Shown: piece by piece, positions 1 to 38,448 of the stretch
Numbering within the stretch: the stretch's first letter is position 1
Layout: each line of letters opens with the position of its first letter
Origin: a virus
Taxonomy: Duplodnaviria; Caudoviricetes
Virus record (IMG/VR): IMGVR_UViG_3300037313_000254
Span: 1-38,448 of that record
Direction: 5' to 3' (one strand)
DNA length: 38,448 nt
Program-made: the position numbers and the translations under genes
Notes under the pieces: model-generated
Databases searched by the model: none
Told to the model about the DNA's origin: nothing
What the model saw: only the letters and a program-made list of their open reading frames with translations

Positions 1-335
1 CCTGAAGTTTCGTAAACGCCGCCCGCGATCGTCACGGCAGTGTTAGCGGATGCAAGCGCCTGCAAAGTCATTCCCGCTTCAAGTTGCAGGCCGATCGCCT
101 GAGGCGGTACATACGTTTGGCCGGCCGAAAGAGAGAAGGCCGACATGATCGTGTTGGAGGCACCAGCTGATCCTGCTGACGGAACCCGGTAGAGCGTCAC
201 CGTCACTGGACTTCCCGACGTGTTCGTGAATGACAGGTTATTAACCGTCGAAGTCGTACCCGTTGGCGCTGTGTAATAGGTCGCCGCAGAGGTGGTCAGT
301 TGAGCCGCTATGATGGCTTTCGGGATGCGCTGCAT
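1..335 (-). CDS. Small Thr/Ser-rich beta-sandwich virion protein (113 aa when completed across the junction; stop TGA at 38311-38309)
   Basis: Missing from the ORF track because it runs off the end. ATG at 335 directly after the upstream stop. Reads MQRIPKAIIAAQLTTSAATYYTAPTGTTSTVNNLSFTN...LEAGMTLQALASANTAVTIAGGVYETSG(S*). Confidence 0.85.
   Translation of the reverse strand, partial: MQRIPKAIIAAQLTTSAATYYTAPTGTTSTVNNLSFTNTSGSPVTVTLYRVPSAGSAGASNTIMSAFSLSAGQTYVPPQAIGLQLEAGMTLQALASANTAVTIAGGVYETS
13..133 (+). repeat. Terminal overlap, copy 1 (121 bp, identical to 38328-38448)
   Basis: Base-by-base match TAAACGCCGCCC...GGCCGAAAGAG. Positions 1-12 do not match 38316-38327. Confidence 0.97.
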
Positions 336-875: not shown

Positions 876-2287
876 TGATTGTTCGATTCGGCCTGGACCC
901 ACGCTCCCATGAGCGCTGTCTTGACCGGTGCAGACCACGAAAGCTCAAAGACGCGATCGCGCGCCATGCCGAGCCGCTGAAACTGCAATGACGTCAGGTA
1001 TTCCCCTTCCTTACCAAGACTGGTCTTGACTGCATTACCCCACGACTTCCCGCGCGTATCGCTCCAGCGCAGAAATACCCACACCGGACCATTATTTGAT
1101 CCGTTCCCGACTTCCATATTGGCGATGAATTCTCGGTACCTGATTCGGTCGCTGTTGTCGTCGACGCTATGCATGAACGATCGTATGCGCGGGATAGGGT
1201 TGCCGTTATCCGTGAGGTTGTTCACGTCCCATAGATACAGGTTCCCGTTTTCCCAATCCCCGACCACAGGCTGGCCGTATGCCGATGCGTAGCAATTCGC
1301 GCGGTGGCGGTGCAGGTTTCCGTTATCGTCGATCCAGTTCAGTTCGTTCCACTGCTGCGTCGACAAGTCGTACTGCCAGGTCTTGTCTGCTGTCGGGAAC
1401 GTGATCACATAGAAAAAATGACCTTCCAGCTGGTACGTGAAGCCGATAGCGTCGTCGACGCGTTCATACGTAGCGATCTCACTGTCCAGCGCAAACGTGG
1501 AAATCTGGGAGGCATTGAACTGCTGGCTTCGATTGATGTAGCACGTCCCCTGCTGCGACTGAGCCAACCAATAGATTTCCCCGTCCATCTGCGCAATTGA
1601 TCCGGCGGCAGCGCAGCCGTGCTGTATAAACACGCCAGGCAAACGCTCAAATGGAAACGTCGTGTCGCCCGCGTTGAACCAGACTTCGGTCGTCTCGGCA
1701 CCAAGCAGGTACACATAACGCTTCGTCACGCCGACGCCTATCAACTTGTCAGAGAAGCCTGATTTAGACGCAAAATCCGTCGCATCAAAGGAAATCTCGT
1801 CATTCAGCGATATGTACCATTCGCGCGTGCCGGGCGAATTGAGCACAAGAAACCCATCGACGAAGTTGACCGTGTTGCCGCCTACAAAAGCTGCATCAGC
1901 GAGAAGCGCAAAAGTATCGTCTGCCAGCTTGATCGTATATCCGCTCGTTGACCCATCGACGATTACTGCATACGTTGCGTTGTCGACGATATCTACAGGA
2001 CCTGTTCCAGTGCCAATCGAGCCGAGCAGCTTGAGCGTGAAATCGGAGTTGATGCGATAGACGGACGACCCGCAGACGCCATATGTGATGCCGTTGGAAG
2101 CTGCGTACAGGCCTCGCCACCCGCTATCCGTCGCTGTCGTCTTGAGGGTCAGCCCGGGCGTCAGATAGTAAGTAAATGGAAACGGGGAATCCTTCGGGTT
2201 CTGCTCCCCGTAGAGATTCACGCATCGCTGTGCTTCCGCGACGAGACTCTTGGCCGAATAAGCCCCCGTCGTCAGCGGCACCTTCAC
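872..2287 (-). CDS. Tail hub / nozzle (P22 gp10-like DNA stabilisation protein)
   Basis: About 471 aa, beta-propeller-like. Motifs TTEVWFNAG...FPFER, TWQYDLSTQQW and LRWSD.RG.SWGN...LGMARDRVFEL. GTG at 2287 overlaps the HNH stop and has a GGAG SD. Confidence 0.88.
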   Translation of the reverse strand: MKVPLTTGAYSAKSLVAEAQRCVNLYGEQNPKDSPFPFTYYLTPGLTLKTTATDSGWRGLYAASNGITYGVCGSSVYRINSDFTLKLLGSIGTGTGPVDIVDNATYAVIVDGSTSGYTIKLADDTFALLADAAFVGGNTVNFVDGFLVLNSPGTREWYISLNDEISFDATDFASKSGFSDKLIGVGVTKRYVYLLGAETTEVWFNAGDTTFPFERLPGVFIQHGCAAAGSIAQMDGEIYWLAQSQQGTCYINRSQQFNASQISTFALDSEIATYERVDDAIGFTYQLEGHFFYVITFPTADKTWQYDLSTQQWNELNWIDDNGNLHRHRANCYASAYGQPVVGDWENGNLYLWDVNNLTDNGNPIPRIRSFMHSVDDNSDRIRYREFIANMEVGNGSNNGPVWVFLRWSDTRGKSWGNAVKTSLGKEGEYLTSLQFQRLGMARDRVFELSWSAPVKTALMGAWVQAESNNQ

Positions 2288-2784
2288 GGCGAACTCCACT
2301 CAGAGCGCGGCCGGCGATTGCGGATCTGCTCTGAACGCGTCGCCCAACGGCAGTTCGACTTCGAATATCCGAGAGAATTATCGACACGATCAAGCGTTAG
2401 TCCTTCCTGCCACGAAGGAGCCATATCTGCTTCAAACGTGGAGAAATCCCGCCATTCGGCGCACACAGTTATCCCACGCCCACCGTAGTTACGGTATGCG
2501 TTGTTATTAGGATTCGTGCACCGCTGGATCATTTGCCCCCAAACCCTATAAAGACGCGAACCATACTTCCCATGTTTCGCTTTCGACCGAAGGAAAGCGG
2601 CCTTCCAATGACCGCATCCACCCGATTTACCGTTCTTGAGACTCGTGCTAATTACTGCCTTTTCATTCCCGCATGCACACCGGCAAAGCCAGCACGTAAA
2701 GGCGCCATGCTTGTGTGAAAACCCCAATACGGTCCAATCACCAAACTTCTTTCCAGTCAAATCTTCTCTATAAGGCTTGTTCAT
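2284..2784 (-). CDS. Free-standing HNH homing endonuclease
   Basis: DLTGKKFG.WTV...WLCRCACG N-terminus, YGGRGITVC.EW..F and LTLDRVDN..GY...NCRWAT..EQ..N HNH core. SD GGAGGTGA before ATG at 2784. Confidence 0.9.
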   Translation of the reverse strand: MNKPYREDLTGKKFGDWTVLGFSHKHGAFTCWLCRCACGNEKAVISTSLKNGKSGGCGHWKAAFLRSKAKHGKYGSRLYRVWGQMIQRCTNPNNNAYRNYGGRGITVCAEWRDFSTFEADMAPSWQEGLTLDRVDNSLGYSKSNCRWATRSEQIRNRRPRSEWSSP

Positions 2785-2829
2785 TTCACCTCCGGCTAAC
2801 ATAGAAATCACGATAAGCCGGAAGTAAAA
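2785..2829 (-). promoter_or_regulatory. RBS-sequestering hairpin of the HNH gene; the 5' arm is late motif copy 3 (2814-2828)
   Basis: Minus-strand UUUUACUUCCGGCU pairs with AGCCGGAGGUGAAA (14 bp, two G-U) and covers the SD up to the AUG. Confidence 0.75.
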
Positions 2830-2853: not shown

Positions 2854-3603
2854 TTACGGCCCACTCGACCCGAGGTACATATCCCCGTAAACGTTATAGG
2901 CGGCCGCCCTGTTCCCTCTCAAAGCGGCAGGCATCTGGAGAAGCGGAATCTGCGCATTCACCTCTTCGATGATGCGCATGGACGCCTCAGCTTTACCCTG
3001 CACGACCGGATTCACCGGCAAGCCGTAGAAAGGATAAAGCTCAAGCGTCAGGTTCCACATCAACGCAGCCGCATATTCGGGCGGAAGCGCGATCTGGTCA
3101 TTGATCGTCTGGAACTGCTGCAACTGCTGCATGACCGTGATGTCTATCTCGTACTGCGTGTTCGGGATCGGCCACACGAACAGATTCGCCATCGGATAGC
3201 CTGCGTCGTAGTAGGCATACCGTGGGAAAGCGTTCAGATCCTTGATCGAGATACGGTCGTAGTCCTCGCGCGCCTTCAGGATTTCGAGCGGATAGCTAAC
3301 CGGAAGCGGCGTGCTGGCGTTCTGGCGGAAGTAGGCGAATTCGAGCTTAGAGGGCCGTGCGACGTTGAAGTCGCCGCCCGGCCCCACCGTATAGGAAATT
3401 GCGCCCGTGGCCTGCTTTGATACCGTGATGAGTTGATAAACCATGTAACGACGGCGCTGCCATTGCGCCATCATCATATTCATCAGGTTGAAAGCATCAT
3501 TCATATCCTCCGCAGACGCGACCTGCCCCACGCCTACGACGTTGGCCGTCTTCAGCGCGAGATTGATGATGTCAGATGGCGTCTGCGGAGTCGGGACGGT
3601 CAT
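2854..3603 (-). CDS. Head-to-tail adaptor (P22 gp4-like)
   Basis: DIINLALK..NVVG.G...AEDMNDAF..MN.MM..W and LPPEYAAALMWNL.LEL.P.YG motifs. Lies between coat and nozzle. Confidence 0.82.
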   Translation of the reverse strand: MTVPTPQTPSDIINLALKTANVVGVGQVASAEDMNDAFNLMNMMMAQWQRRRYMVYQLITVSKQATGAISYTVGPGGDFNVARPSKLEFAYFRQNASTPLPVSYPLEILKAREDYDRISIKDLNAFPRYAYYDAGYPMANLFVWPIPNTQYEIDITVMQQLQQFQTINDQIALPPEYAAALMWNLTLELYPFYGLPVNPVVQGKAEASMRIIEEVNAQIPLLQMPAALRGNRAAAYNVYGDMYLGSSGP

Positions 3604-6497: not shown

Positions 6498-8668
6498 TGT
6501 TGCTCTCCGGTGGTTTGTGTTTCTACGGGTGCCAGTACGTTCTGAATGCCTGCGGCGTATAGGTTCGCCGGGTCTGCGTTATCAGGCTGGATTCCGGCGT
6601 CGGGATTGGGTGCGCGCAGGATTTCGGCCAGCGCCTTGCGGATGATCGGCTCCAGCGCCCCTTCTCCCATTGCTGGAACGATTGCCTTTAACCGGTCTGT
6701 CTCCGCCTTGAACGCATCGAGAATTGACCTGTTGTCATTTTCCATGCGAAGCGCGAGATGGTTCAGTGCATCCATGTCGACTCGCTTCTCCTGAAGCTGA
6801 TGCTCTATCGTCTTGTCGGCAAGCTGTTGTTGCAGATGCTGGATCAGGCCAGCAGCAGCCTTGAGTTGCTGATCCATCTGCTGGACCTGCGGATCAACCT
6901 CACCAAGCACCGCCGGATTCGTCGCCTTGATCCAGTTGCGCACGCGCTCCATGAGCTTGTCGGCAGCCGGGAAGTCGGCTGTGCCCATATACAGATCGCC
7001 GATGACGTTCGAAAGCTGCGGCTGCGCTGCCAAGAGTTGTGTCATTGCGTCGAATGCCTTCTCGCGGCGAGTGTCGAAGTTCGGGCCGCATTTGGCGATG
7101 ACATCGTACTTGCCCACTGCCGGATTGAAGATAGACGATGCTTGCGCTTCCCCCGCATCCGATTGCTGGTCAAGCGGCTTCTTTGATTCCGGATCGATCT
7201 GGATCTGATGTTCTTCCCCATCCTCGGCGCGGATGCGCAGCACGCGTTTCGTATCGTAGATCTTCGGGATCAGGTCAACCAACTGAACGCCAGTGAACCG
7301 GATCGCGTCAGCCATCCCATCCTGGAAGTGGAACGTAACCCGGCTGCCCTGCTTCTGGCGCTGCTCAATTGCTACACCACTGACTTCATTGCCCTGCTCG
7401 CTGAATGTAGCCTCGTACTGGCCCGAGGCCATCATCAGCTCATGCTCGGCAGCTTGCATGCCTTCCATGAAAACCGGAGCGCTCGATGGCGGCTGCTGTC
7501 GCGTTGGCTGAGGGATAGGATTCCCGTTCTCGTCCGCGTGGTTATAGGGCAGGTACGAATGATTCTGCGTATTCGCTGTCGCCCAGTAGTTCTCCAGCCC
7601 TTCGATGGCTTCGACAGGTGCTGTGTAAGGAGACTTCGACTGCAGCGCACCATATTCCAGCGCGGCTGACGCGTTGTAATTGAACGCGCGTTGAGCATCT
7701 TTCAGATAACGGACGAGGCCCTTGCGATCAAGCCGGTTCTCAATAACGACTTCCTCGCCAACCGCGCGGATGATCGGTATGTACTTTCCAGCCCATGTTG
7801 ATTGATCCTTGATCTCATCTCCGACGATCAGATACCACTGCACGCCGAACTTCGGCACGCGGCGACGCTGCGCTTTTCCCTCCTCCATCGCCCTGCCGAA
7901 CAGGTCGCGGTTCTCCGCAGGCAGATCCGACTCGCGAACAAGCGTGATCGATCCATCGTCACCCTCGATCGCATACAACCATTCCTTCGATTCCTCGCGC
8001 TCATAATATTCGGCCACGCGGATCGAATCCTTACGTGTCCAGGCTAGCTCGCCTTCGCCCATGACTGCTTTGCCGGCCAGTTTCCCGTATTTCTTCTCGG
8101 CCTGATCACGCGGCATATCATCAAAGATGAATGCAAACCGCGCATCCGATCCGTCTTTCTTTTTGATATGCGGGTCCATGTAGACCGACAACGGGTCATT
8201 CACAGGCCGGATGAAGATTTCCTGATCAAAACTGTCGTCGTCGACATAATCAGTGACGATGCGCCAGTAGCCGATGCCCCCACCAACCTGAAATTCCATC
8301 GCCTTCGAATAAGCTGCCTGAGCGTCCGAGATGTATTCGATGCGCCGGATGATCTGTTCGAAGACCTGTGCACTCTCGTATGTTGCCTCATCGCCGGTCG
8401 CGCTGATCTGGACTGATGGCTTGTTCTCCTTGCCCTCATTGACAACGTGCAGCCAGTGCGTGTGGGTCTTGTTGATCGTCACCATCGGCTGGCCGGCGAG
8501 TTGGCGCTGTGCTCGCACTGCAGCATTCCACTGGTCGCCATTATCGGGGTCAGCATACAAAAACCGAATGTCGTCCTTAAAACGACTCCGGGCATCAGAC
8601 TCCCACTCAACAGCAGCCGCGAATCGGTCGTGCGCCCTTTTGATAACGTCTTTTTTGCGCTCAGCCAT
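6494..8668 (-). CDS. Portal protein (P22 gp1-like)
   Basis: 724 aa. GDQW...TINK, GGIGYWRI..DY, W.GKYIPII, GLVR.LKDAQR..NY and SGVAI..RQ motifs. Confidence 0.93.
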   Translation of the reverse strand: MAERKKDVIKRAHDRFAAAVEWESDARSRFKDDIRFLYADPDNGDQWNAAVRAQRQLAGQPMVTINKTHTHWLHVVNEGKENKPSVQISATGDEATYESAQVFEQIIRRIEYISDAQAAYSKAMEFQVGGGIGYWRIVTDYVDDDSFDQEIFIRPVNDPLSVYMDPHIKKKDGSDARFAFIFDDMPRDQAEKKYGKLAGKAVMGEGELAWTRKDSIRVAEYYEREESKEWLYAIEGDDGSITLVRESDLPAENRDLFGRAMEEGKAQRRRVPKFGVQWYLIVGDEIKDQSTWAGKYIPIIRAVGEEVVIENRLDRKGLVRYLKDAQRAFNYNASAALEYGALQSKSPYTAPVEAIEGLENYWATANTQNHSYLPYNHADENGNPIPQPTRQQPPSSAPVFMEGMQAAEHELMMASGQYEATFSEQGNEVSGVAIEQRQKQGSRVTFHFQDGMADAIRFTGVQLVDLIPKIYDTKRVLRIRAEDGEEHQIQIDPESKKPLDQQSDAGEAQASSIFNPAVGKYDVIAKCGPNFDTRREKAFDAMTQLLAAQPQLSNVIGDLYMGTADFPAADKLMERVRNWIKATNPAVLGEVDPQVQQMDQQLKAAAGLIQHLQQQLADKTIEHQLQEKRVDMDALNHLALRMENDNRSILDAFKAETDRLKAIVPAMGEGALEPIIRKALAEILRAPNPDAGIQPDNADPANLYAAGIQNVLAPVETQTTGEQQ

Positions 8669-9155
8669 GGTAGAAGGCTCCGTGCGTCATTTGGGCAGCT
8701 AGTTCATATATCTCGCTGGCTTCTTCAGGCGTCGAGTAGTAACCCAGCGATTTTTGGATAGTCTTCCCGGCACGTCGATCGAAAAAGGACATGCGCGCTT
8801 GATACTTTCCATTTGGGTATAGACGCACTCCTCGAAAGCCGAGGGGATTCGGCCATTTGGCGTTCTTCATATTCTCTGCATGCGTAGCGCGACGCAGATT
8901 AATTAACCTGTTATCGCTTCGGCAGCGATTTTCATGGTCGATTTCGTGCAGTGGGTGACTGCCATGCACATAAATCCATGCCAGAACATGCGCCATATAG
9001 CGCTTCCCAAAAATACCAATGCGCACATATCCGGTGTCTTTATCAACGCTCCCGGCCTCTGAGCCTGCCAATTTCCCGCCTGTGGTCTTCTTCCAGTGGA
9101 ATTTGCCCGAAACGGCATCGTACGAGAGGATCTCTCTGAGTTGATCTTGTCTCAT
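8661..9155 (-). CDS. Free-standing HNH homing endonuclease with AP2-like C-terminal domain
   Basis: LSYD..SGKF.W, AH.LAW.Y.HG.....IDH.N...DNR..NLR.AT..EN, then GFRGV...KYQAR...LGYY.T.EEA. Overlaps both terL and portal. Confidence 0.92.
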   Translation of the reverse strand: MRQDQLREILSYDAVSGKFHWKKTTGGKLAGSEAGSVDKDTGYVRIGIFGKRYMAHVLAWIYVHGSHPLHEIDHENRCRSDNRLINLRRATHAENMKNAKWPNPLGFRGVRLYPNGKYQARMSFFDRRAGKTIQKSLGYYSTPEEASEIYELAAQMTHGAFYHG

Positions 9156-36475: not shown

Positions 36476-36928
36476 TTAAAGCCATTTTTCGTACGTCGTC
36501 TCGACCGGCTGGAAGTCGAGAAACCTGAATAACGCCGACGCATCGTGCGCGACCTTGCTGCCGACTGCCCAACGTTGCACGCCACGGCGTTTCAGTTCCT
36601 TTTCAACAAAGCGGAACATGCGAATACCGGCAATGCTGGTGCGACGCTCTGGCGCCACATAGAAGATGTCCGGCGAGCACGTCAGGCAAGAACGGTAGTG
36701 CAACCCCGGCGCGATGAAACACACGAAATACGCGACGATTTGTCCGGCCTCTCGACCAATGACCATCATCAGAGACCCATCCTGCTCGCGCGCGCGGTAG
36801 ACCTCGACCATCGGATCAAGCGGGACGTCATGGTCAACGTGCGTTGAAATCTCGCCGTAATGCTCCGCCAACAATGGCAAAAGTTCGGTGTAGACCTGCG
36901 AGAAGGGTTCGATAGCGAAAGTGATCAT
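36476..36928 (-). CDS. GNAT-fold acetyltransferase (P22 gp14 / T7 gp13 position)
   Basis: DIFYVAPERR...G..MF..VE.ELK.RGV...LF..L.F...E..Y.K acetyl-CoA motif A/B pattern. Confidence 0.82.
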   Translation of the reverse strand: MITFAIEPFSQVYTELLPLLAEHYGEISTHVDHDVPLDPMVEVYRAREQDGSLMMVIGREAGQIVAYFVCFIAPGLHYRSCLTCSPDIFYVAPERRTSIAGIRMFRFVEKELKRRGVQRWAVGSKVAHDASALFRFLDFQPVETTYEKWL

Positions 36929-37506
36929 CGCGAAGTCCTGATGTCGACGACCATCGAAATCCGGTCGCTCGCGCTGTTGTTCACCACCTCATGGACCTGG
37001 CTGTTGTCGAACCAGAAACAGTCGCCCGTCGTCATGCTGATCTGTTCGTCTCCACATTTCAGGATCGCGCCCGGCAACCCTTGCAGGACTACATGAAACC
37101 GCGTGTAGTAGCGCGTCTGCTCTGGCGTGTCGGCATGCGCGAAGATGCGCCCACCAGGGATGATCTTGTTGATCATCACCCGTCCTAGACGCTCGCCTGC
37201 GACGCGCGCCATGAGATTCATCACGATCGGACGAGCCTCATGCAACAGCTTGTACGACGGGTAATCAACCGCTTCGTACTGGTCGTAACCGGCAAGCTGG
37301 TTCTGCTTGTACAACTCGATCTGTTCTTCGGTCAGGCCTTCCACCTTCTCCGGGAAGCGAAGCATGATCGTTTCGGTCTCGCCAAACGGACCCTGCGGAT
37401 AATGGCGAAGGAACGTGTCTTCCTTCCACAACTCCGGACGGCGTTTGATGGCGAGAACGAGCGGATTGACATCTACCCCGCTTGCTAGAAGGTGGAAATT
37501 TCGCAT
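36925..37506 (-). CDS. 2OG-Fe(II) dioxygenase, aspartyl/asparaginyl beta-hydroxylase family
   Basis: PGGRIFAHAD (HxD), RFHVVL, WFDNSQVHEVVN (distal H), R.SMVVD. Confidence 0.87.
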   Translation of the reverse strand: MRNFHLLASGVDVNPLVLAIKRRPELWKEDTFLRHYPQGPFGETETIMLRFPEKVEGLTEEQIELYKQNQLAGYDQYEAVDYPSYKLLHEARPIVMNLMARVAGERLGRVMINKIIPGGRIFAHADTPEQTRYYTRFHVVLQGLPGAILKCGDEQISMTTGDCFWFDNSQVHEVVNNSASDRISMVVDIRTSR

Positions 37507-37847
37507 CAGCGAAGGCCCCCGACCTGATACGTTTCCGAGGCCGTCGGCGTGATCGGCGACGCCGTGTTGTTGCTGAACGTGATTGCCAGCGTATTTGACG
37601 CACTGACGCGCACGTTCACGATCCCGAGACCAGCTTGCGACGTCGGCTTGGTCACAAAGACCACATCGCCCACGCGCACACCCGTCAGCGTGAACGTCTG
37701 TTCTGCCGTCGTGTTGGCTGCGACCTGTGCCGGCGAAATCGTCAGTGGCATGTGATAGATCGAAGTCAGCGTATCGCCAGGAGGGTTCTTGAATGCCAGC
37801 GAGTTGACAGTAACGTCATCCGTTGCGACGCCAAGATAGTTGCTCAT
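37506..37847 (-). CDS. Small Thr/Val-rich beta-sandwich virion protein (113 aa)
   Basis: ISPAQVAANTTAEQTFTLTGVRVGDVVFV......GL.I...RVSASNTLAITF.N; GGGAG SD. Confidence 0.8.
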   Translation of the reverse strand: MSNYLGVATDDVTVNSLAFKNPPGDTLTSIYHMPLTISPAQVAANTTAEQTFTLTGVRVGDVVFVTKPTSQAGLGIVNVRVSASNTLAITFSNNTASPITPTASETYQVGGLR

Positions 37848-37850
37848 GCT

Positions 37851-38312
37851 TTAGCTCCCTGAATAATTCGAAAATTCACCGTGTAATTCCAGCGCTGCTC
37901 GCTTGTACGCTTCACTGGCCTGCTCATGAGTATCGAAAGAGCCTAAATACTTCCGATGCCCCCTGAAGGCGATTCGTGCCCGCCACCTCTTCCCATCCTT
38001 CGTTAGGCATACGCCTTTCGATTTACTCTTGCTGCGTCTGTTATGCGCGTTCTCTTCAGCCGTGCACAAACGTAGATTTGATCGTCGGTTATCTGATCTA
38101 TCTCCATTGACGTGATCCACTTCCATCGGATCGCCGTGTCCTAAACCGAGCAACAGTCGATGCATTCCCAAAGTAAAAAATCCGCCGTCTGGATGGCGCA
38201 TGTTTGTCGATGCATAACCATTTGATCCGATATGCCACGTATAGCCTGCGATCAGATCAAGGTCCGCTTCATCGATCCAGAAAGATCGTCCTTTTTTATC
38301 GTGAATTTTCAT
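37851..38312 (-). CDS. Free-standing HNH-AP2 homing endonuclease
   Basis: MHRLLL......VDHVNG.RSDNRRSNLR.CT.EEN, then KGV....RWRARI...YLGSF.T.E.A..AY..AALELHGEF. Lower GC than its neighbours; ATG overlaps the upstream TGA. Confidence 0.93.
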   Translation of the reverse strand: MKIHDKKGRSFWIDEADLDLIAGYTWHIGSNGYASTNMRHPDGGFFTLGMHRLLLGLGHGDPMEVDHVNGDRSDNRRSNLRLCTAEENAHNRRSKSKSKGVCLTKDGKRWRARIAFRGHRKYLGSFDTHEQASEAYKRAALELHGEFSNYSGS

Positions 38313-38327
38313 GAGCCACTTGTCTCA

Positions 38328-38448
38328 TAAACGCCGCCCGCGATCGTCACGGCAGTGTTAGCGGATGCAAGCGCCTGCAAAGTCATTCCCGCTTCAAGTT
38401 GCAGGCCGATCGCCTGAGGCGGTACATACGTTTGGCCGGCCGAAAGAG
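38328..38448 (+). repeat. Terminal overlap, copy 2 (circularisation overlap)
   Basis: Identical to 13-133. Confidence 0.97.

Follow-up and report, generated by a model that had tools for sequence, protein, structure and literature searches.

The principle of an endonuclease gene that replaces the end of its host gene is already known in eukaryotes. In yeast, WHO elements (Coughlan et al. 2020) replace the 3′ end of FBA1, and WHO6 cuts in an allele-specific manner (PMC7282813); the elements have since been called a third, rarer category (bioRxiv 10.64898/2026.08.13.744650). In fungal mitochondria, mORFs form gene hybrids in Allomyces macrogynus atp6 and in Glomus atp6, atp9, cox2, and nad3 (PMC3630166). 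Among phages, the characterized free-standing endonucleases of T4 cut hundreds to thousands of base pairs from their own genes (PMC2988022), and the out-of-frame HNH gene of ShiLan is another splicing-free arrangement (PMC11855218). Within the open-access literature, from which subscription journals are largely missing, no phage description of 3′-end replacement with capture of the old end was found.

Here, we describe such an arrangement in a window of 38,448 nucleotides, which is one whole contig of a P22-like soil phage. As in a WHO element, a replacement 3′ end lies upstream of an endonuclease gene and the old end downstream, with no splicing. The two differ in several respects: the yeast enzymes combine LAGLIDADG and zinc finger domains, whereas HNH_3 and AP2 are the only domains found here; the host gene is FBA1 in yeast and a gene of the virion module here; and the replaced piece spans approximately 400 bp in yeast but only about five codons in the phage. 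Furthermore, the displaced end is a dead fragment in yeast, whereas here it is translated as the last residues of the nuclease and provides the ribosome-binding site of the next gene, and cleavage has been shown for WHO6, whereas cutting by the phage enzyme is predicted. The phage cassette thus works like a WHO element, yet it stands outside WHO by enzyme family and host gene.

The mitochondrial mORFs likewise consist of a free-standing endonuclease gene that arrives with a foreign C-terminal coding end, the native end being displaced behind it. However, their enzymes are of the LAGLIDADG or GIY-YIG type, neither of which the phage cassette encodes, their replaced ends cover approximately 50 to 300 alignment positions with amino acid changes in atp6, and the native end is described as unexpressed in atp6 and cox2 (PMC3630166). 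With the T4 seg and mob genes, the cassette shares an intron-free HNH gene placed between or overlapping core genes, a start coupled to the upstream stop, and different enzymes aimed at one gene. The T4-like genes, in contrast, are intergenic or split a gene into two polypeptides (Aeh1 mobE in nrdA, T4 mobA) and cut at a distance, and the sections of PMC2988022 available do not describe gene-end replacement. The HNN-AP2 enzymes of Xanthomonas phages (PHROG 99) have the same domain order and motif boxes; no conserved flanks were found for them and random spread was proposed (PMC2248197), whereas two nuclease lineages share one insertion base here. Like other free-standing homing endonuclease genes, the phage gene lies outside any intron or intein and is optional, with empty alleles in relatives.

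Two alleles of one gene end

The first and last bases of the contig record two versions of the same locus (Table 1). The 121-bp overlap of its ends is exact, and it is the sole repeat of at least 20 bp in the window; just outside it the two copies diverge, with mismatch starting at base 7 against 37864 and at base 12 against 38327. On the minus strand, gene A finishes GTT TAC GAA ACT TCA GG at the left end and GTT TAT GAG ACA AGT GGC TCA TGA at the right end. The original prediction, made from the letters of this DNA, had noted this overlap, the match of bases 1 to 6 across the HNH gene, and a recoding of every codon from Tyr to Ser with the same residues. All of these hold, and the recoding reaches further, from Tyr to the stop: 7/7 codons and 11/21 nt differ between the occupied and empty alleles, including two TCN/AGY serine swaps, while protein A is identical in both (113 residues, ending Y-E-T-S-G-S).

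The nuclease ORF ends TCA GGG AGC TAA, followed by AGC and the ATG of gene B, with GGGAG 7 nt upstream of that ATG, in agreement with the proposal that it carries the Shine-Dalgarno sequence of the next gene. Because the codons at the stop of gene A are also the Shine-Dalgarno letters of gene B, any insert at this point has to supply gene A with a new end while the old one stays before gene B. Six letters of the empty allele (GTTTCG) align with 38327 to 38322, which sets the inserted DNA at 458 bp, preceded by two synonymous flank changes (38327 and 38324). The cassette had been predicted at approximately 37864 to 38327; the left edge stands, while the right edge falls at 38321, and the letters beyond it are flank. 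The insertion point is the third base of the gene A Thr110 codon, and the cassette has a G+C content of approximately 48% versus 57% for the genome. We read the 121-bp repeat as an assembly overlap on a circle, which would measure 38,315 bp when occupied and 37,857 bp when empty; its location within gene A, with its boundary at the allele bubble, makes a biological terminal repeat the less favored reading.

Table 1. Coordinates of the two-allele junction, of a second nuclease site, and of related alleles.
Feature	Position	Strand	Basis
Empty-allele stub; bases 7-12 unique to the empty allele, bases 1-6 = 37858-37863	1..12	-	contig ends, X1/X2 joint
Gene A, invaded; 111 codons visible before contig start	3..335	-	ORF, homologs, fold
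First copy of 121-bp overlap, inside gene A	13..133		repeat search
Second copy of 121-bp overlap; links gene A to the occupied allele	38328..38448		repeat search
Replacement end of gene A, occupied allele, Y-E-T-S-G-S-stop; all 7 codons synonymous	38309..38329	-	allele alignment
ATGA overlap: HNH start codon on new gene A stop	38309..38312	-	ORF list
Inserted cassette, 458 bp	37864..38321	-	allele alignment, G+C
HNH-AP2 endonuclease ORF, 153 aa	37851..38312	-	Pfam, PHROG 99
Captured old gene A end, 13 nt; now HNH S-G-S-stop; GGGAG at 37859-37855	37851..37863	-	empty-allele comparison
Gene B, downstream, 113 aa; ribosome-binding site in captured end	37506..37847	-	ORF list
Second nuclease gene (PHROG 374), adaptor/head-closure junction, same layout	2284..2811	-	relatives comparison
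Captured old adaptor end, S-S-P-stop with GGAG and overlapping head-closure GTG start at 2287; now the end of the second nuclease	2284..2297	-	matches nuclease-free L081, L084
Replacement end of adaptor gene; both Ser codons swapped TCN/AGY, one extra Gly, not purely synonymous	2854..2871	-	relatives comparison
HNH-free AGY-serine alleles with stranded old G-S-stop	just after gene A in L026/L110, L093, L174, L245, L319

Four of 18 listed sequencing runs (X1 to X4) were examined as contigs, not reads, with approximately 72% of X1 covered; the contig depths are rough and do not give allele frequencies. The junction was covered in X1, the likely source run, and in X2, a run of another study, and not in X3 or X4. 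In X1, a joint from 37863 to 38328 with GTTTCG between occurs at a depth of 4.7 (shorter side, 30 letters), together with a contig across the HNH gene at a depth of 8.4 and a shared flank contig (37382 to 37863) at a depth of 15. In X2, a 344-nt contig at a depth of 9.19 has this joint too, again with the six letters between; it shows 3 differences over 96 nt on one side and a single one over 116 nt on the other, that of gene A. An identical 21-nt empty site is also present in a prophage in a Paraburkholderia saeva record (L223/L322); it has no match within 3 mismatches in the window, which carries the occupied sequence.

Thus, the predicted empty site is real, as contigs of two studies contain it and a prophage matches it at every letter, and the further claim that both alleles coexist in the sample is borne out by X1, whose contigs contain both the empty joint and the HNH-crossing sequence. 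That bases 1 to 12 are adapter, chimera, or assembly error, so that no empty allele exists, might be proposed from their being merely 12 bases at a contig end; it is scarcely credible, as independent contigs from two studies and a bacterial genome carry the same site. In X1, one 482-nt contig serves both alleles on the side of gene B, and the 121-bp overlap is common to them on the side of gene A. With both flanks in common, the junction is the only local difference that a self-sparing nuclease could use.

The nuclease, gene A, and their relatives

The 153-aa product matches HNH_3 at residues 51 to 89 (43.4 bits; Pfam cutoff, 24.8) and AP2 at residues 96 to 145 (E = 1.7e-7; 31.9 bits, slightly below the cutoff of 33.3), and it belongs to PHROG 99 (E = 3e-41). 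Among PDB sequences, a plant AP2 protein matches best (E = 3e-8). The HNH motif residues D66, H67, N75, N79, and N88 are present and invariant in 22 aligned sequences; we take their catalytic roles to be those of the corresponding residues in I-HmuI, which matches weakly (E = 0.035). The gene is not part of an intron: the window has no Rfam match, and gene A stops in frame before the HNH gene and is full length without splicing. A search for sigma-70 promoter-like sites found none in 37700 to 38448, and we infer that the HNH gene is translated by coupling to gene A through the ATGA overlap. As the new TCA TGA holds the HNH start codon, one of the codon swaps (AGC to TCA) is explained.

The closest of 41 protein homologs has 46% identity, none of the 41 has the S-G-S C terminus, and the search of viral contigs found no close relative of the nuclease; accordingly, no second copy of the exact cassette was seen. 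By eye, a possible HNH promoter lies in a related occupied locus (L111, 4340 to 4372), where the new gene A stop opens a −35-like hexamer with TATGAT 17 bp on, and another (L124) has TG-TATGAT at the corresponding place. Plant AP2/ERF domains bind GCCGCC; this motif occurs 5 bp from the first changed base, a weak lead given its 57 copies in the genome.

Gene A probably encodes a virion protein, judging from its location in the virion module and from a predicted beta-sandwich/jelly-roll fold (pLDDT, 94) that matches phage proteins. The predicted fold matches 67 predicted viral proteins at an E value of ≤0.001, several of them labeled virion proteins; in the PDB, it finds generic jelly-roll matches, with TM scores of 0.57 or less among the matches listed. 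Thr110, where the insertion falls, closes the last strand and does not vary among 22 homologs. The original prediction that the insertion preserves the virion protein therefore stands for its 113 unchanged residues, while the virion identity itself is supported indirectly, by module position and predicted fold. Gene A had no match in 50,697 GenBank phage records, and gene B had none in Pfam or PHROG.

By its gene set (terminases, portal, scaffold, major head protein, head closure, ejection proteins, repressor, integrase, holin, and endolysin), the genome is that of a temperate P22-like phage. Relatives with this gene A end occur in records of Paraburkholderia, Cupriavidus, Burkholderia, and Achromobacter, which makes a Burkholderiales host likely. 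The region 36476 to 37506, situated between the small virion-module genes and the ejection genes, carries a 2-oxoglutarate-type hydroxylase (Asp_Arg_Hydrox) and an acetyltransferase-like gene; relatives swap among several genes of this kind directly after gene A.

Alignment of relatives with and without the HNH gene had also been suggested, and both kinds exist. The 376 loci compared gave 68 distinct gene A ends, 2 with an HNH gene downstream, 64 without a match to four HNH queries, and 2 too short. Pattern scans added one occupied allele (L124), and a scan for the HNH tail led back to the L111 contig and to no further gene A locus. By whole-genome search, gene A relatives turned up in 1/399, 3/213, and 2/301 genomes, and none added an occupied allele; two distant matches, L323 and L324, were set aside.

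In L111, a 171-aa HNH-AP2 gene is inserted at the same base as the window's HNH gene. Its replacement end starts with the same nine letters, ACA AGT GGC, which occur in 0/52 HNH-free ends, and it has the same 13-nt captured end (TCA GGG AGC TAA). The two nucleases match at 40% over 104 aa and fall in different parts of a 24-protein tree, in which a single clade for the three site occupants was rejected (p-AU = 0.013). Different HNH lineages thus lie behind the same replacement start, indicating that the site was invaded twice or that one nuclease replaced another behind the same end. That the HNH gene adopted the old gene end as its C terminus and supplied a recoded replacement, as first proposed, is therefore confirmed in the window and recurs with an independent lineage. 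The third occupied allele (L124/L253) suits the layout less well than L111: its gene A ends ACG TCG GGC TCT TGA, and only the Shine-Dalgarno stretch was captured, not S-G-S. Its nuclease is 70% like the L111 enzyme.

Against HNH-free alleles, the contrast between occupied and empty ends is extreme. The 38 HNH-free ends form 703 pairs; differences extend to all 7 codons in 18 of them and reach at least 11 nt in 11. When the gene body was at least 90% identical (16 pairs), 11 pairs differed by 0 nt, 2 by 2 nt, and the remaining 3 by 5, 6, and 8 nt. These last 3 pairs indicate that the gene A end is exchanged without an HNH gene, too. The occupied end lies 5 to 11 nt from all 38 HNH-free ends compared, and no donor for the new end was found among them.

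L110 and L111 have gene bodies that are 97% alike and ends that differ by 9 nt. However, the end of L110 is itself rewritten, and a stranded copy of the old G-S-stop comes after it; L110 is thus not a naive empty state, and the 9 differences compare two rewritten ends. Stranded copies of this kind follow 5/12 HNH-free AGY-serine ends versus 0/40 others (Fisher P = 3e-4, a post hoc comparison of related alleles). They may be scars of HNH invasion followed by loss, a lead rather than proof.

Proposed local homing and its alternatives

The two-allele structure is real and well supported. As to whether its recoding was selected for self-protection or imported from a donor, a homing reading would predict protection. 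We propose, with a probability of roughly 0.65 and on the strength of sequence comparisons, that the cassette is a local, self-sparing homing element, which would nick or cut the empty junction in co-infecting relatives while the rewritten end protects its own genome. The nuclease would be made late in infection by translational coupling to gene A, and its AP2 domain may bind near the junction. A nick or break at the empty junction of a co-infecting phage or resident prophage would then be repaired off the occupied genome, with gene A as one arm and the captured end plus gene B as the other. Such repair would copy the cassette together with the two flank changes, and no splicing would be needed.

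Local homing is favored by the concentration of divergence at the gene end (11/21 nt there versus 1/116 nt in the X2 gene A flank), and the recurrence of the layout at a second junction of the same genome also counts toward it. The sample is thin, however, with an HNH gene behind only 2 of the 68 distinct gene A ends in relatives, which weighs against homing. The target may also be a distant one, by analogy with the T4 free-standing enzymes that cut far from their own genes (PMC2988022).

The cassette could instead have moved without any cut at the junction, by recombination at a module boundary, by a distant cut as in T4-type intronless homing, or by co-conversion driven by a neighboring nuclease approximately 2.3 kb away, in which case the rewritten end would be the donor's version and not protective. 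Relatives differ in the gene that follows A, and the end of A differs in step with it; the 3 of 16 close HNH-free pairs that differ by 5 to 8 nt fit such exchange. Precedents exist as well: T4 seg enzymes cut far from their own genes (PMC2988022), HNN-AP2 genes have been argued to spread without sequence specificity (PMC2248197), and the virion module here holds three nuclease genes, neighbors that may mobilize each other (PMC10448857). Nevertheless, these routes do not readily account for two HNH lineages at the same base behind a nine-letter replacement start seen in 0/52 HNH-free ends, for flanks that the X1 alleles share with no nearby alternative difference, or for an occupied end with no donor among the ends compared. 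We therefore regard movement without a junction cut as unlikely, although it deserves serious consideration.

Translational needs offer a further explanation, in which the insert simply kept the ribosome-binding site of gene B and gained a coupled start, with the nuclease inactive or serving the phage otherwise (e.g., in recombination or host DNA damage). The TCA TGA that makes the HNH start codon, the captured Shine-Dalgarno sequence at 7 nt, and the same TCATGA coupling of the terminase-side HNH gene are all in keeping with this. However, such needs account for at most the last two codons and leave the recoding of Tyr, Glu, Thr, the first Ser, and Gly unexplained; moreover, the HNH motif residues are intact, and most relatives do without the HNH gene, so the phage does not need it. 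Translation as the whole explanation is thus improbable.

Returning to local homing, a broader and more tentative proposal, to which we give somewhat less than even credence, is that the cassette represents a miniature, splicing-free third kind of homing element in phages, aimed at the overlap of stop codon and ribosome-binding site. The five-codon rewrite would confer immunity, and the 13 captured bases would serve at once as homology arm, nuclease C terminus, and ribosome-binding site. Virion-gene junctions would then undergo repeated invasion and loss by unrelated HNH lineages, which would drive serine codon switching and leave scar alleles behind.

Homing of the WHO type, by replacement of a gene end, has so far been shown in yeast and inferred in fungal mitochondria; cutting of the empty junction by the enzyme would extend it to phages. 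Such homing would explain how optional HNH genes enter tightly overlapping virion operons without breakage and why gene ends diverge there. It would also narrow the HNH-AP2 target to approximately 20 to 30 bp, for which a resistant allele exists in nature. The open question of how nicking by HNH enzymes leads to homing (PMC2988022) could then be tested with a 153-aa protein and two short duplexes. What this case contributes to the known principle is that both alleles occur in one sample, that a second study bears out the empty allele, that two nuclease lineages occupy one base, and that the same genome has a second site.

Other nuclease sites in the genome

The second nuclease gene, which has no Pfam match, repeats the layout between the adaptor and head-closure genes (Table 1). 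The head-closure gene probably starts at the GTG at 2287, not at 2299. The third is an HNH-AP2 gene (8661 to 9155) between the terminase large subunit and portal genes, its start coupled by TCATGA; no captured end could be made out clearly, as no close empty relative was found. Its 3′ end overlaps the portal start codon in a different frame, and an HNH-AP2 gene in L351 ends likewise before portal.

Two relatives carry related nuclease-like ORFs at the adaptor/head-closure junction. In L011 (1101 to 1733), the ORF resembles the second nuclease and lies at the same adaptor junction without a captured old end; the adaptor end differs from that of its sister L009 at 7/30 nt, versus 19 of the preceding 300. 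L091 (1342 to 2200) shows a mirror layout, in which a nuclease-like ORF follows the stranded old 5′ start of the head-closure gene (approximately 22 codons) and precedes a rewritten start. The stranded start differs from three relatives at 6 to 12 of 66 nt, and the rewritten start differs at 24 to 27 of 66 nt.
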